Shown: one piece after another, positions 15,601 to 63,387 of the stretch
How the letters are laid out: every line of letters starts with the position of its first letter
Numbering within the stretch: the stretch's first letter is position 1
Assembly: GCA_965287045.1 (NCBI GenBank)
Contig: OZ336890.1
Coordinates: 45,632,001 to 45,696,000 of the forward strand
Reading direction: 5' to 3'
Source: Carcharhinus amblyrhynchos
Taxonomy: Eukaryota
Length of the DNA stretch: 64,000 nt
Notes under the pieces: generated by a model
What the model saw: the letters and a program-made list of their open reading frames with translations, nothing else
The model's database searches: none
Told to the model about the DNA's origin: nothing
Position numbers and translations under genes: made by a program

Positions 15601-16215
15601 GGGGTCAGCAAGCCAGTCAATAAAGTAACAAATTCCTATCACAGAGGTGAAAAATAAAACAAGGTAAGCATTGCTATAGTCACTAACAGGACCACAGCAT
15701 TGAGAGTTCCTGGTAAGAAACAGAATGGAGAGTGACGTTACATTAATAAATGCCTTCTATCACTTAAACTGTTGCCATGATGAGGAAAATAAGATACTTC
15801 AATTTGTTTAAATCAAGTACTTTCTGAATGTGAATGAGCTTTGTTTTCAATGTCACTTTTCCCCCCAATTCATTGATTTGACACCAGCACAGGTATGTTT
15901 TTGCATCATATTAATTCTTTCCAGTTTCACTCCTTTTCCTGCATGCAGTGTTCATTTGTAAGGACAAGAGGTATCATCATTTTCCCAGGGAATAACCATG
16001 CACATAAGGATTGCAGTTCAACTAAATGGGGTGAATGTAGGCAATAAGTAGTCCCAGACGTAACTTGCCATCAGCTAACCAGCTGTAGGGATATGCACTC
16101 AACCTTGCTACCTTCATGAGTAAGTCATGGCAAGTTCTCAGGATCAAAGGTCAACCTTTAGCAGTACAATTATTCTGACCATTGGCTTCCATTGTTGCCA
16201 CCTGCTCCAACACAA

Positions 16216-17374
16216 TTTTCAGAAGGCGTTTGACAAGGTACCTCACAAGAGGTTATCGCAGAAGGTAAGGGGGCATGGAGTTGGGGGTAGGGTGTTAGCG
16301 TGGATAGAGGATTGGTTGTCAAATAGGAGGCAGAGAGTGGGGGTTAATGGGTGCTATTCGGATTGGCGGTTGGTGACTAGTGGAGTGCCCCAGAGGTCGG
16401 TGCTGGGGCCTCAGCTATTTACCATTTATATAGAAGATCTGGAGGAGGGAACCGAATGTAGGGTGTCGAAATTTGCTGATGACACCGAGATTGGTGGAAC
16501 GGCAAATTGCGCGGAGGGTGTGGAGAGTCTGCAGAAGGATCTAGATAGGCTGGGCGAATGGGCCAGGAAATGGCAAATGGAATTTAATGTTGGCAAGTGC
16601 GAGGTGGTCCACTTTGGTAGGAATAATGGTAGGAAGGACTATTACTTACTGGGCGACGGTGCAGAGGGACCTCGGGGTCCTTGTGCATGAGTCGCAAAAA
16701 CCCAGCCTGCAGGTGCAGCAGGTGGTCAGGAAGGCTAATGGGATGCTGGCCTTCATTGCGAGGGGGATTGAATATAAAAGTAGGGAGGTCGGCATTGGTG
16801 ACGCTGCAGCTGGAGTACTGTGTGCAGTTTTGGTCGCCATACTTACGCAAGGATATTTTGGCCTTGGAGGGAGTGCAGAGGAGGTTTACTAGGCTGATAC
16901 CGGAGTTGAGGGGGTTGAGCTATGAGGAGAGGCTGAATAAACTAGACTTGTACTCATTAGAGTTTAGAAGAATGAGGGGAGATCTCATTGAGACGTATAA
17001 GATGATGAATGGGATGGATAGGATAGAGGTGGAGAGGCTCTTCCCGCTCAGAAAGGACAGTAGGACTAGGGGGCACAGCCTCAAGATAAAGGGGGGGCGG
17101 TTTAGAACGGAGTTGAGGAGGAACTTCTTCACTCAGAGGGTGGTGAATCTCTGGAATTCTCTGCCCGTTGAGGTGGTGGAGGCTGCCTCGCTAAATATTT
17201 TTAAGACGTGGGTTGATGGGTTTTTGATAAGTGAGGGGATTAAGGGTTATGGGGAGAGGGCAGGAATGTGGAACTGAGCCACGACAGATCAGCCATGATC
17301 TTATTGAATGGCGGGGCAGGCTCGAAGGGCTGGATGGCCTACTCCTGCTCCTATTTCTTATGTTCTTATGTTCT
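16216..17374 (+). mobile_element. Young 5'-truncated CR1 LINE (RT domain, C-terminus, 3' tail)
   Basis: FQKAFDKVPH, SGVPQRSVLGP, KFADDT, LEGVQRRFTRLIP, FFTQRVVNLWNSLP; (TTCTTATG)n tail; small internal deletions break ORF2. Confidence 0.96.
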
Positions 17375-30981: not shown

Positions 30982-32051
30982 CTACATTTAAAATATTAAA
31001 ACAAAAACATACATTTAAACAAAAATACCCCAAGTACATCGGGGACAAATATGAGTTACATGGTAACTGTGTGAGGAATATTTCTGAAGGACCTTCCTTT
31101 TGAATTAGAACCTCAATCAATGTTAATCAAAGGAACAAGAGTAGGCTGTTCGATCCCTCAGACATGTTCCACCATCCAATTAAATCATGGCTGATCTGTA
31201 TCTTAACTCTATTTACCCATTTTGCTCCGATATCTCATAACATCCTTGCTAACAAAAACGTACCAATTCATTTTGAAATTTTCAATCGAGTCCCAGCCAT
31301 AACCGCTATTTAAGGGAGATATTTCTAGGTTTTCATGGTCCTTTGTGCAAAGAAATGCTTCTTGACATCATCATGGAATGGTCTATCTCTACTTTTAAGG
31401 TTATGCTCTCTTTGTTATGAACCCCCTCCACTTGAGGAAATAGTTTTTCATCCTTTAATCACCTGGAACACTTTATTGAGTCATCTTTTATACTCAATAT
31501 ACTCAATGAGTATATGGCCTGGATTTTATCATCATCAGCAAAGCAATTGGGTTCTCCCCTCTGACCTCAAAGATCTAGTGATCCTGGTGTTGTGATATTC
31601 CCCTAATTCGACAGCAGTTTAAATCTGGTGTCAAGTCAAGCAGCTATCATAGCTTATAGCAACAGTGACGGCAGCGAGATAGTAGGGAACCAAACACATT
31701 GAAGTATTTACAGATGGCAAACCAGGAAGTTAAAAGCACTTAATATCCTTCACTTTTAATTAGATTTTCAGATAGTGAACTAATGATTATGATTGGATTA
31801 ATATAGATGGTAAAATGATGGTAAACAAACCTCAAAAAGATTTTTTTTCATCATATGTGGAGAAATTTTACATTTCACAAATATAAAATAAGACTTTTAG
31901 GATCACTGAAGGTGTTTAGCAGTAATTGTAAAGTTAGTTCAGTTTTAAAATCAGTTACACTTTATTCACCAACTTTTCCAAGGAATTTTACGGTGAGGCT
32001 AATAGCACGAGTGTGAAAGTTTTGGTCAATTCAATTGATTTCTATGAAATG

Positions 32052-32245: not shown

Positions 32246-32905
32246 ACATAAGAACATAAGAAATAGGAGCAGGAATAGGCCACCTAGCCCCGCGAGCCTG
32301 CCCCACCATTCAATAAGATCATGGCTGATCTGATAGTGGTTCAATTCCACTTACCCGCCTGCTCCCCATAACCATTAATTCCCTTATTGAACAAAAATCT
32401 AACTGTTACTTAAACACATTTAATGAGGTTGCCTCCACTGCTTCAATGGGCAGAGAATTCCAAAGATTCACAACCCTCTGGGAGAAGAAGTTCCTCCTCA
32501 ACTCTGTTCTAAATTGACTCCCCCTTATTTTGAGGCTGTGTCCTCTAGTTCTTGTTTCCTTTCTAAGTAGAAAGAATCTCTCTGCTTCTACCCTGCCTAG
32601 CCCCTTCATTATCTTATATGTCTCTATAAGATCTCCCCTCAGCCTTCTAAACTCCAATGAGTACAGGCCCAGTCTACTCAATCTCTTCTCATAAGCTAAC
32701 CCCCTCATCTCCGGTATCAACCTGCTGAACCTTCTCTGCACTCCCTCCAAAGCCAATATATCCTTTCACAAATAAGGGGACCAAAATTGCACACAGTACT
32801 CTAGTTGCGGTCTCACCAGATCTTGTACAATTGCAGTAAGACCTCCCTGCTTTTATAATCCATCCTTCTCGCAATAAAGGCTAACATTTCATTTGCCTTC
32901 TTGAT
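32246..32905 (-). mobile_element. CR1 LINE 3' fragment, fairly young
   Basis: ALEGVQRRFSRLIPEMRGL...FFSQRVVNLWNSLP; tail acataagaacataagaa on the + strand. Confidence 0.95.
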
Positions 32906-42306: not shown

Positions 42307-42458
42307 CTTTGGCTGCTGATAATGTTCCATTGCCATGGTGATTACATTCAGCCCAATCACTACAGTGATGAACAAATCCAAGTAATGGCTCGTGCACATT
42401 TTGTGGATGAAAAGCCGAGCAGGAGAATAGTCAGAGTAATAAGGTTTACACTGTGCTT
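42307..42458 (-). CDS. CACNA1G: Cav3.1 T-type calcium channel alpha-1G, exon equivalent to human exon 27 (end of III-IV linker, IVS1)
   Basis: catttag|AAGCACAGTGT...CAGCCAAAG|gtaagg; 152 nt, phase 1 to 0; encodes [60 protein letters not shown] is typical of Cav3.1. Confidence 0.97.
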
Positions 42459-45545: not shown

Positions 45546-46145
45546 TTTTTTTAAACTACTTGCAGATTTGGGCATTTCTTAAGACAAGAAATTTCTTAAA
45601 TATTTAAAAAACAACATTTTGATCTTAAATTCTAATACTTCCAAATGTAGGACCTTGGGGAGCTAGAGTGACAATGCTTCAGCATGTCCAATCAGCTAAG
45701 CCAAAATTTAATTATTTTGTAATGTTATTCCCAGAGGAAAAATGATATTAAAAGATGTTTTTGTAGATTTAAAACTATGACAAAGATTTCCTTTGGACCA
45801 AACATCAAGTTGATGCATGGAGATGTTGCTGGGACTGGAGAATTTTAGTTCTTTAGTCATTTTGAATTTGAAATGTTAATTTGGTTTGTCTCTCCACAGA
45901 TGTCCCACCCCTGCTGAGATTTTCTGGCATTTTCTATTTTTATTTCAGATTTTCAGCACAGTATTTTGCTTTTATAATATTTTCTATCCTGAATGAATAA
46001 GAACCAATAATAACATACTTGTGTTGGACATTCATTGCTTGGCAATGGCAGTATATTTTGCTCACCAATGGGATGGCTCCTTGTTACCACCCTTTCAATT
46101 CTATGGGAATAGAAATCCAACATTTTAATGTAGATTGTGGGACTT

Positions 46146-53189: not shown

Positions 53190-54390
53190 GCACCATACAT
53201 CTCTTTCAAACATTTCCCCCCTCAGTCTCAACCTATGCCTCTGAGTAATTGACCCTTCGACCCTGGGAAAAAGCCTCTGATTTTCCACCCTATTCAAGTC
53301 TGTCATAACCTTGTAAATCTCTATCAGGTCCCCCTGTCATCCTCCAACACGCCAATAAAAACAATTCAAGTTTGTTCAACCTTTCTTCATTGTCCATATA
53401 CTTCAAACCAGGCAACATCCTGGTAAATTTCTTCTGCACTCTTTCCAACGCATCAACATCCTTTCAGTAGTCTGGTGACCAGAATTGAACACAATATTCC
53501 AAATGGTGCCTAACCAAAGTCTTATACAGCAGCATGATTTTCCGATGCCCATGCTCAATGCCCCGACTGATGAAGGCCAGGGTGCCATATGCCTTCTTGA
53601 CCACTTGCCCACCTGAGTTGCCACCTTCAGGGAACCGTGGACCTGCACGCCTAGATCCCTCTGTATGCTAATATTGCTAAGGGCTCCACCATTTACTTAT
53701 ACGTTTCTTCTGCAGTAGACCTTCCAAATCGCATCATCTCACATTTGTCCATGTTAAATTCCATCTGCCATCTTTCAGCACAGGTCTCCAGCCGCTTTAT
53801 ATCCTGCTGTATCTTCTGACAATCCTTCTCACTATCTGCTACTCCCCCAATTTTTGTATCATCTGCAAATTTACTAATCAGACCACCTACATTTTTCTCC
53901 AAATCATTTATATACATTACAAACAACAGAGGCCCCAGCGCTGTTCCTTGTGGAACACCCCTTGTCACAGACCTCCAGTTAGAAAAGTACTTTTCCACTG
54001 TTACTCTCTGCTTTCTGTGCCCAAGCCATTTCGTATCCATCTTACCAGCTCATCTTAGATCCCACATGACTTCACCTTCTGTGTCAGCCTGCCATGAAGA
54101 ACCTTATAGAAGGCTTTATTAAGGTCCATGTATATAACATCCACTGTTCTGGTCAATTTTTTTTGTCACTTCCTCAAAGAACTCAATCAGATTTGTGAGA
54201 CATGACCTTCCCTTCACAAAACCATGCTGCCTATCCCTAATAAATCTATTCTCTTCCAGATGTGAATACATCCTGGCCCTAAGAATCTTCTCCAATTATT
54301 TCCCCACGACTGATGTAGGGCTCACAGGCCTGTAGCTTCCCGGATTGTCTCTTGTGCCCTTCTTAAACAGAGGAACAATGTTAGCTACTC
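53190..54390 (-). mobile_element. CR1 LINE RT fragment
   Basis: GVPQGTALGPLLFVMYINDL, KFADDTKIGG, WQMEFN motifs; frameshifted. Confidence 0.93.
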
Positions 54391-56870: not shown

Positions 56871-58202
56871 TATTCCACTTCAGAGATTCACATTAAAGAG
56901 AATGGCATCTTGCCCAGATTGGATAATTTATCTGTGGCAGAAGGGAAATTTTGCAGGGATTTAAGAAAGAAAATCAGGACTTAAATGGCTAATAGCTTTA
57001 CTGGGGATGAGGAAAGTCAGATGGTTCAATTTGGGTCTGCACAGGCTAGGTCATTGCTGTCCAGGTTGTGAACTGTCCACTATGTTTAGATGCGACCCGA
57101 GCGTGAGTTCATTCGATCACAGTTCTAATGTGTTCACAGGGGTTGGGTCATCTGGACTGAGCACCATTTGCAAGTGGGCAGGCAAGTTTACATTGCCTGC
57201 TTGTGCAAATCTGTGATCTGTCATCAGAAGGTAACCAAGGGCAAGTGCTCTCTCCCTGTCGAGGCCAAGTGGCTGATTCTTGCTCTATCAGTCCCTGAGA
57301 CTGACTCATGGGCTCATATTCTGCCCTGACTGCAAAGCTATTGGTCTTCTGCTTGTGCTAGCTAGCTGGGTGTCCAACACTTATGGAAGCTCATCACCCT
57401 TCTGAATCACTCAGAAACCCATAAATATAGAGCTTCTCTTTGCCAGAAATGATGTACATACATTCACCCACTTGGCGATCTCATGCATGGCACCCAAATG
57501 CATGTGCATACGTGTGTATAGGTACTGCTGGAATTTAGCTAACAAAAATGACATAGATTATCAGCAGTGTACAGTTACCTGCTGCTTGTCTGTCAAGGCC
57601 CACCCTCTTAGCTACCGCATTCCCTTGCAAAGTCACCGTTGGTTGAGTAGGGAGAATCCAGCTCCGAGAGAGGATGGTCCCTCTAGTTCTTGCCAATCAT
57701 TTGGGTCAGCTGGACAATATTGGCCCTGGAGTAATGTTTGGCTAGCGTTTTAGATTACCAAGTCTCCTATAAATAACTGATAGTTTCACCCAATGATCTT
57801 GGAGCAACCTTAACCTCAAAAATTCATCTCCCTTACCCTCTGTGCTTGTTGTTCGTAAGCATAGGTTTCAGCCATTACCATCTTCTCCTAGCTCATGGCC
57901 AAAACAATATCTCATTGACTGGAGAGCGGAGTTTTAGCAATACCCGATTTCCTCATTGTAACCAAATCAGGGGCCAGTGAATTCTGGATAAAAAGTATGT
58001 TTTCCTATCTGGCCTCCAGGGTCAGCAGCCCTGATAGGAGTTCCCTTATCAACAATGCAACAAAATAAACCTTCAGTGAAGTGGAAGGACCTATGTTAGA
58101 CAGTTAACAATGTATCTATATCCCAGCCACCCAAATCCAAAGTGCAGCAAGGATCATTTACCAATTAGGTTCTGATGTGAGTGGTTTAGGCAAAGAGGCA
58201 GA

Positions 58203-60434: not shown

Positions 60435-60832
60435 CCCAGCACCCTGTGAGCTTGCAGTTTGCTCCTTGTGCTCCCACTTGGCGAGCCCCAGCCTATCCTC
60501 AAGGATATTTATTGGTGATGGTGGTGCTAAAAGCAGATGTAACAGCAATTTCTCTCCTTGGAATTTCTAGCAAAGTGCACAGTCAGTACTGACTCAGTGC
60601 ACAGTCAGTGATTTTCCTTCTCTTTGAAGGGACTGTCAACATTGGAATTATTCAGCAAGGCCCAGCCTGAGAAAGATTAATCTTTAACAATTTAACTCAG
60701 TTTTCCCCGACTCTGGGTTTGTGTAGTGACAGCTTAGCGGGGGACAGAGCAGACGGTGACGGTTCACATTAGATGTTGGAACAAAAGGGGCAATTTAGTC
60801 AGGCATTAGACAGGCACATCGCATCACAATGC

Positions 60833-60886
60833 ATCATCTCGTGCTGCTTGAACTTTCCAAGGTAATTACCTTCTCCAGCATAACAT
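60833..60886 (-). pseudogene. Degenerate homologue (pseudo-exon) of Cav3.1 cassette exon 26
   Basis: 54 nt, phase 1: xAT GTT ATG CTG GAG AAG GTA ATT ACC TTG GAA AGT TCA AGC AGC ACG AGA TGA T = (N/D)VMLEKVITLESSSSTR*. Aligns without gaps to recalled human (N/D)LMLDDVIASGSSASAAS and lies upstream of exon 27 as expected; flanks are ttg| and |gc. Confidence 0.6.
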
Positions 60887-63387
60887 CAACAAGGAGCAAA
60901 TGCGTAACACAAATAACCCCTTGGAGAGCGGCAAGGCTGTAAACTATTTTGAAATAGCTACCTTTTCCTTTAGCTTGAAGATTTTATTCTTTTACTCTTT
61001 CATGCTATTTATTATAAACATTTAAGCTGTGCAAGTTTAAAACAACCACCTCGATGCACAATTTTATCAAGGTTTTACAGGTTTCTACTTGAGAGAGAAG
61101 AGGTTAGCTGTTGTGGCTCCAAGTTTGCTAATTTAGTTTAACAGTGGAAGAGTGAAGGAAGAGAGTAAGGTGCAGAAAATGTGAGAGGATGGAAGTAGAC
61201 ACAGACTGTAGAAAAGCTGAGCTGACACCACCAGAAAAGAACAGACAATAGATAGAAAGGAGGAGGAGGCATGCAAAGCAAAATGACAACCTCTGACCTC
61301 ACCGCAAGTAAATCAGACTACATCACATCCTGCTGAAGCATCTTTACTCTTTGAAACATTGAAAAGGGAAACTTTTATGCATCACTTCTTGTGTCAAAAA
61401 TTAATTCAATATCGTTGCAAAAATATCTGCAAAGCTACAGTCTACTTTGAAAAAGGTACCTTTTTTAAAAATCTTAAAATAATTTATCATCAATGAAAAG
61501 CAGTTTGCTGTGTCTGGCTGCAACAACATGTAATAAAGCAGCTTTGCCTCTATTAACTGTCACAGATGTGACAGTCCATGACCTACTTAAATATTTAGAA
61601 TGTATAGTGAGTTATTACATGTATAATGTGACCTTTTATCTGTATTTCTCAAGGGGTATTTGATAGTTTTTAAAAAAAATTCGGGTCTTTTTTGCACTGT
61701 TTGACTTATTGGATTTTTGAGTTACCACCTGGAACACGACTGCTTCAGTACTCGACTATATTTTAAATCCTCAATCTTTAAACCGTGGTAAAATCGCCAG
61801 GGAAACGGCCAAGGCACAAAACAATTCATCCTCCCATACTTGGGGCTGCAGGATAACATCAATTATCTGAAGGAATTTTACCCAGTAGATGGGTCAGTCT
61901 ACACCTGGACACTCAACCTAATGTGGTGCAGGTACCTATCTACCTGTCATGCACAATCGTAAACATTCATAAACGTTTTTGCAAGGGTGATAGCAAATCT
62001 AAATTAGCCAGGCTGAGTAAAGACAGTTTGGTGTTGAAGCCACTATATGCAAGGCTTTAGGGGAGCAAAGTAAAATACACAGTACCTTGAAGACCAGAGT
62101 CATAGCTTTTTTTGACCAGGCTCTTCATAGAACTTCTGAAATATGAAGTTAATTGATACCAAAGACATTATGAAAGAAGCTATTTCTCCACACCATTCCC
62201 CCACTCTCCTCCCTCAGCATGTGAGCAAAGCTCAGTACTAGCCAAGCGTTGCGCTGATAATTTCAGTCCCAATGTCACCCTGCTATTTCTGATCCTAAGT
62301 TATCCATGTGCCTCGATATTATTTGTCCCTTCACTTTTCTGGTGTCACACTATTATCTGTCCCTGGACTATCCTGTCCATCATTGATCTCACACCACTAC
62401 TGGCAGAGTTACACTAGCTGTCATCTGTGACCTCAGTGCTTTCCTGGATAATAAGATTCTCACACAGCCCTAACATCCTGGAGTGGAATGTGCTTTGATT
62501 CACTGGTATGGGCCTGACCTTCCCAAGATTCACAGCACCTGACACTATCCCAGCTCCCTCTTGAAGTGCATCTGGAAAAGCAAAAGTGCTGTCAGGTTTC
62601 TGACTTGACAGATGTGGCCGTAATCAAACTTCTGTGGCCTTGTTTAGAGTCTGAGCAAGACATTTCATAAGCTACAGATTTGAAGCTTATAGGGTAGCAC
62701 TGGCAAGATTTTATTCTGACTTCACTCAGTTTCCACACTTGTCAGCAAGGATCACTGGAATGTGATCAAATGCAGGAACCCTGGTTGCTTTGTCTTTTCT
62801 CTACAACCCTGAGTTATTGAGGCCAATTGAAGCCCCCATAAAACTACCTCTTAACTCTGTAGGTACTGCAGATTAAGCCTAGAACCTCTCTGTTCTTCAA
62901 GACTTTGTTCTACATTAACTTAAGAACTGAAATGTTTAGTAGGATCTGCACTAAACTAATTTTGTAAAAGTGGCAACTCATTTGAAAAGACTTGCTGACT
63001 CTTTTGGAGCCTTCCACTTTTTCCGCAATTGAAATAACTGACTTTGAGTTTTTAATAATTGCCCCATTAGCAGAATCTATCAGCTGGCCAAGGCAAGAGA
63101 GATGCACAACCACTTAACTAGGGGTGAAAAACATCTAAGCAAGGCTAAGTCTGGAAACAAAATGACAAAAACTGCACTAACCACCACTAACTACAAGCCT
63201 GTCTGGGGGTTGGCATGCAATGCTATGCAGAGGATTATTTTGTGACAATTAAGAGGGCAATGCTGACACTTTCAGTTTGGAAAGAAAAAGGATAAGCTAC
63301 ACCTACCCTACAGAGTAAATTTAAAGTGGGTTCAGAGATAGGTGTGAGTGCATCATGACCTTCAGGGAACAGAATTTAAAATGCCAT

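Follow-up and report, generated by a model that had tools for sequence, protein, structure and literature searches.

A putative remnant of cassette exon 26 in the CACNA1G gene of a shark

In an intron of the shark CACNA1G (Cav3.1) gene we find a 54-nt segment that resembles cassette exon 26 of bony vertebrates and that is broken at both of its ends and in its reading frame. We put at about even the chance that this segment is the dead remnant of exon 26, lost in cartilaginous fishes. Among the explanations weighed below this one is the best supported because the lesions are common to related genomes, because the segment shows no constraint beyond that of its flanks, and because the listed cartilaginous-fish gene models are without the exon.

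Setting and register of the segment

The window, by which we mean the whole 64-kb stretch of DNA that was analyzed, carries exons 27-37 of CACNA1G on its minus strand, and the gene is intact here. Specifically, 501 of the 502 residues of the exon chain agree with P0273, a model from Mustelus asterias, with the end of the last exon being approximate, which suggests this houndshark or a species very near to it; Cav3.1 structures are the best match of exon 27 (42307..42458, minus strand), which is intact with a phase-1 acceptor. The exon-26-like segment (60833..60886, minus strand) lies on the sense strand, where 18.4 kb separate it from the downstream exon 27, in an intron that continues past 64000, exon 25 being outside of the window. 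When read from 60886 to 60833 it exhibits a split first codon followed by VMLEKVITLESSSSTR*, with TG in front and GC behind. This is in agreement with an earlier note on this DNA, made from its letters, which had described a 54-nt phase-1 segment on the sense strand some 18 kb upstream of exon 27, having TG in place of the acceptor AG, GC at the donor position and TGA as its last codon. The segment has no repeat character and matches no Rfam family. A protein search with its 49-residue frame gave none out of 16 candidates, which is weak evidence, and the same frame compared with 1.84 billion representatives recovered only P0287, an unrelated repetitive protein.

The register in which the segment is read depends on the length of exon 26 elsewhere. 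In the proteins compared, exon 26 is 18 codons long in therian mammals and 17 codons long (51 nt) in amphibians, birds, squamates, teleosts and the coelacanth, and the amplicons of 292 and 238 given in Table 1 of PMC2696442 put mouse exon 26 at 54 nt. Thus the description of exon 26 as a 54-nt cassette is correct for therian mammals and does not extend to the other bony vertebrates. Given the 51-nt length outside of therian mammals, the donor position of the putative remnant is uncertain (the 51-nt register ends at 60836), and the GC donor and last-codon TGA of the earlier note both depend on the mammalian register.

Several other elements of the window are recorded here in their own right. 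A 36-letter near-copy of part of exon 32 (29383-29348, minus strand; 33 matches, one gap) is present in the next intron, 1.5 kb downstream of exon 32, where it carries a stop; its local score is 57, compared with 29 for the second-best block, and it has the look of a short duplication within the gene. At 7969-7835 (minus strand) there is an intact optional exon of 135 nt with a weak donor; it is the size of mouse exon 35, is a 98% match to catshark model P0264 and is absent from the Mustelus model P0273. The open frames at 16124-17277, 32406-32765 and 53681-54058 resemble what we take to be reverse-transcriptase remnants of CR1-type LINEs, and short dispersed repeats occur at 45910, 47932, 49526, 51600, 52217 and 63413.

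Likeness to exon 26 relative to chance

We compared the segment with exon 26 of bony vertebrates at the level of the peptide. The segment and the human exon 26 peptide as it is printed in PMC3376122 agree, by eye, at seven places (M, L, V, I, S, S, S), which confirms the residues that had been claimed as identical with mammalian exon 26; the eutherian model P0088 likewise has 7 of 17 identities. The marsupial sequence has 8 of 17 identities, and the lizard and coelacanth sequences have 8 and 7, respectively, with one gap each. Teleost exon 26, the sequence of which is strongly diverged, shows no similarity to the segment (2-5 identities). When 42460-64000 is searched with pooled profiles of tetrapods and coelacanth the segment is the best place, with no better or intact candidate in that interval, and across the pooled and primer models no more than one place in the intron ranks above it.

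How much this likeness exceeds chance depends on the model that is used. With pooled peptides the score of the segment is reached by 11 or 12 of 60 simulated introns, and with single back-translated peptides by 35-100 of 100, which is chance level. Pooling six back-translated peptides lowers these figures to 7 and 11 of 200, and a pooled profile combined with the pyrimidine tract lowers them to 3 of 300, a best figure that overstates the case because several models were tried. Under this last model the segment scores 11.4, and a control on the plus strand (31350) comes close with 11.1. The only real exon-26 DNA used for comparison is a 22-letter mouse primer from Table 1 of PMC2696442, which matches the segment in register at 14 of its 22 letters, including both Val-Ile third positions, and the control at 31350 at only 7 of 22; four places in the intron reach at least 14 of 22. 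The score from the primer combined with the eutherian profile is attained by 126 of 300 simulated introns (29 of 300 once the tract is added), and hits in real control sequence, at 13.2 and 12.7, are on a level with the 12.8 of the segment.

These figures bear directly on the explanation that the segment is a chance look-alike, that is, ordinary single-copy intron sequence resembling a short serine-rich exon, with the true exon 26 having been deleted, lying beyond the window, or never having existed in sharks. The chance-level scores of the single peptides, the scores attained by pooled peptides in simulated introns and the equally high scores of real control sequence all speak for a look-alike, as do the lack of constraint and the lack of a recognizable donor (2-3 of 9) described below. 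However, the top rank of the pooled profile falls in the right intron, on the right strand and in the right phase, the tract is in register so that profile and tract are jointly matched in few simulated introns, and the mouse primer favors the segment over the control. We regard a look-alike as unlikely, though as the likeliest of the rivals. Orthology of the segment to exon 26 is suggested by a likeness that is marginally above chance, and we consider it probable. Figures S3 and S4 of PMC3376122, which cover the splice sites and a DNA alignment of exon 26, are relevant to this orthology.

Related genomes and splice signals

We next compared positions 60560-61160 with contigs from related genomes, using 4 of 22 runs (X12, X13, X19 and X20), each of which covers the interval in one piece; the runs that are possibly the source of the window (X1-X4) are not among these four. 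Over 601 letters there are 10 differences in X12, 20 in X13, 23 in X19 and 24 in X20, and this 96-98% identity suggests that the coded organisms are related sharks. The X12 contig has a depth of 2 with five difference rows unseen, so it was excluded from the constraint test and gives nothing certain on the donor or the stop, and the depth of the X13 contig is also below 5. At the missing acceptor site (60887..60888, minus strand) all four relatives have C at -2, giving CG, and AG is observed in none of them. The GC that stands where the 54-nt register would have its donor (60831..60832, minus strand) is kept in X13, X19 and X20, and the in-frame stop (60834..60836, minus strand) is TGA in X13 and X19 and TAA in X20. 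Of the TG, GC and TGA bases that the earlier note had wanted checked, the GC and a stop recur in X13, X19 and X20, and the TG recurs in none of the four relatives; the absence of AG that it reported extends to all four.

Since CG is present in all four relatives, the TG of the window is likely a late CpG-type change and not a special acceptor. Lesions that are common to related genomes are real and older than this species; the death of an ancestral exon, which the note had placed in this lineage, thus fares best among its explanations with an older date than it gave. The same comparison addresses an assembly error that masks an intact exon 26. The T at -2 is seen in the window alone, as such an error would have it, but the relatives have C and not A at that position and the GC and stop recur in three independent genomes, which leaves an error highly improbable. 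Upstream of the segment, the letter at 60930 in all four relatives makes an extra AG (60930-60929, minus strand) that the window does not have.

Four changes fall inside the segment, these being K to E (X13 and X19), T to I (X13), a silent change (X19) and the change of stop to stop (X20). As a result codon 5 in X13 and X19 is E instead of K, which is nearer to the D of tetrapods. Variable places number 4 of 54 in the segment relative to 33 of 547 in the flanks (Fisher p 0.56), a comparison that has low power with four events and that assumes neutrality of the flanks.

Regarding the splice signals, a pyrimidine-rich AG-free stretch (60889..60919, minus strand) directly precedes the segment, is like an acceptor tract in being among the top 4.3% of intron positions, and falls inside the range of the real acceptors of this gene. 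The donor consensus is matched at 3 of 9 letters after 54 nt and at 2 of 9 after 51 nt, so that neither register has a usable donor. Both registers also run into a stop, which in the 54-nt form is the internal TGA and in the 51-nt form is created at the junction with exon 27. Hence the segment has no AG acceptor, no phase-1 GT or strong GC donor and no open frame into exon 27. A strict filter for in-frame AG..GT cassettes found 0 in 42460-64000, which upholds the statement that 42.5-64 kb contains no intact exon 26.

Tandem TG acceptors in U2 introns are a known class, and the segment resembles them in that a pyrimidine tract precedes its TG and AGs follow 14-17 letters further on. It is unlike them in that CG replaces TG in all four relatives and in that all products from the TG carry a stop. 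On these grounds a working TG acceptor is unlikely, and the proposal that the segment is a non-canonical exon is weakened by the CG of the relatives and by the stop in either register.

A strong donor-like site is present inside the segment (60864..60872, minus strand), where it matches the consensus at 8 of 9 letters and is one of only two such sites among 1227 GT sites. The other 8-of-9 site in the intron is at 57578 on the minus strand. The six intronic letters of the internal donor (60869) are the Val-Ile codons, which are present in mouse exon 26 too. Because this codon pair serves as the intronic hexamer of the donor, a change just before the pair would have made a strong out-of-frame donor.

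This donor also allows a poison exon to be drawn, in which a candidate 50-nt frameshifting exon (60870..60919, minus strand) would be bounded by the AG at 60921-60920 and by the donor at 60869; with a predicted stop 96 nt into exon 27, its inclusion would subject the mRNA to nonsense-mediated decay. Minor variants through the same donor would be a 17-nt exon using the TG acceptor or a 3-nt microexon. The rarity of the donor, an acceptor tract in the top 5.8%, canonical splice sites with a premature stop by prediction, and both dinucleotides being unchanged in X13, X19 and X20 are consistent with such an exon. Poison exons coupled to nonsense-mediated decay are, however, usually strongly conserved, and this conservation is missing from the canonical unit that can be drawn over the putative remnant. 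Among these close relatives it varies at 4 places in its 50 nt, with 5 of 44 in 60887-60930, which is not above the conservation of the flanks. In addition the relatives all have the extra AG nine letters upstream that is absent from the window, the TG needed for one variant is not kept, and a one-residue insert is found in no gene model listed. We consider a poison exon quite unlikely, and it is very doubtful that in sharks the gating cassette became a 50-nt poison exon, through a single change before the Val-Ile codons that made the internal donor, loss of the old acceptor and use of the upstream AG, so that it now holds down the amount of Cav3.1 and no longer tunes its gating. A new mechanism would be at hand only if the 50-nt form is spliced.

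Gene models and the history of exon 26

Gene models that span the III-IV linker were examined for exon 26. Among those listed, 0 of 53 cartilaginous-fish Cav3.1 models (21 species) contain it, with 38 being without any insert, 13 carrying 25C alone and 2, both from rays, carrying 25C together with a 10-residue insert. Exon 26 is present in 87 of 198 bony-vertebrate models listed. These models are predictions and a biased sample, the bony set being bird-heavy with many isoforms per species; five of the 20 members of one cluster are outside of the listing, and P0248, P0250, P0262, P0274 and P0282-P0284 were left out of the count as they do not span the linker. Six chimaera models are also without 25C and so say little on exon 26. 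With these limits, the contrast between 0 of 53 and 87 of 198 speaks against sharks, rays or skates having exon 26 intact. The insert of the two rays (P0253 from Mobula birostris and P0254 from Hemitrygon akajei) follows 25C, is unrelated to exon 26 and has no counterpart in the window; it is possibly a ray-specific replacement cassette. Among 66 loci from a metagenome scan for bony-vertebrate DNA, the one that was read, the fish-like L001, has exon 27 and no exon 26 in the 1.9 kb upstream, and seven further loci are 61-70% matches to exon 27.

The same count bears on whether the orthologous segment is a precursor that was never an exon in sharks, remaining in the intronic ancestral state until bony vertebrates later recruited exon 26. 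With none of the listed shark, ray, skate and chimaera models having the exon, a single gain in the bony vertebrates is no less parsimonious than a gain followed by a loss, and no relative compared has an intact splice site. However, the segment already has the tract, the phase and 17 open codons, and it is closer to tetrapods than teleost exon 26 is. Furthermore, PMC3376122 describes for Cav3.2 a cassette in the place that exon 26 takes in Cav3.1, and this hints at an older origin even though its sequence is unlike. We judge a never-exonized precursor to be rather unlikely.

Fossil cassette exons, or pseudoexons, in introns are a known concept, and the segment is like them in being an exon-like remnant with broken splice sites, a stop and changes at the rate of its flanks; it is unlike them in that its homology to an exon still in use reaches no more than marginal significance. 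It is like CACNA1G exon 26 of bony vertebrates in its sense strand, its place upstream of exon 27 and its phase-1 register, and unlike that exon in having no AG, no GT and an in-frame stop. A literature search, mostly without subscription papers, found nothing on exon 26 in sharks.

If the segment is a dead remnant it would descend from an exon 26 of ancestral jawed vertebrates, with the loss occurring before the compared species split and possibly early in cartilaginous fishes. Splicing would now pass over the remnant and connect exon 27 straight to exon 25 or to 25C. More speculatively, the change before the Val-Ile codons may have made the strong internal out-of-frame donor, inclusion would then have caused a frameshift, and this may have favored loss of the acceptor; the donor would thus either have killed the exon or have come afterwards. 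Slow shark evolution may have kept this old loss legible, since PMC10587355 gives sharks a low mutation rate (7e-10 per base and generation).

A real remnant would mean that exon 26 of Cav3.1 was already present in the last common ancestor of jawed vertebrates, and that cartilaginous fishes gave it up but retained 25C, so that one of the two optional inserts in the III-IV linker was lost. This would be a modest and checkable fact of the evolution of ion-channel splicing, and one in which slow shark genomes keep lost exons legible.
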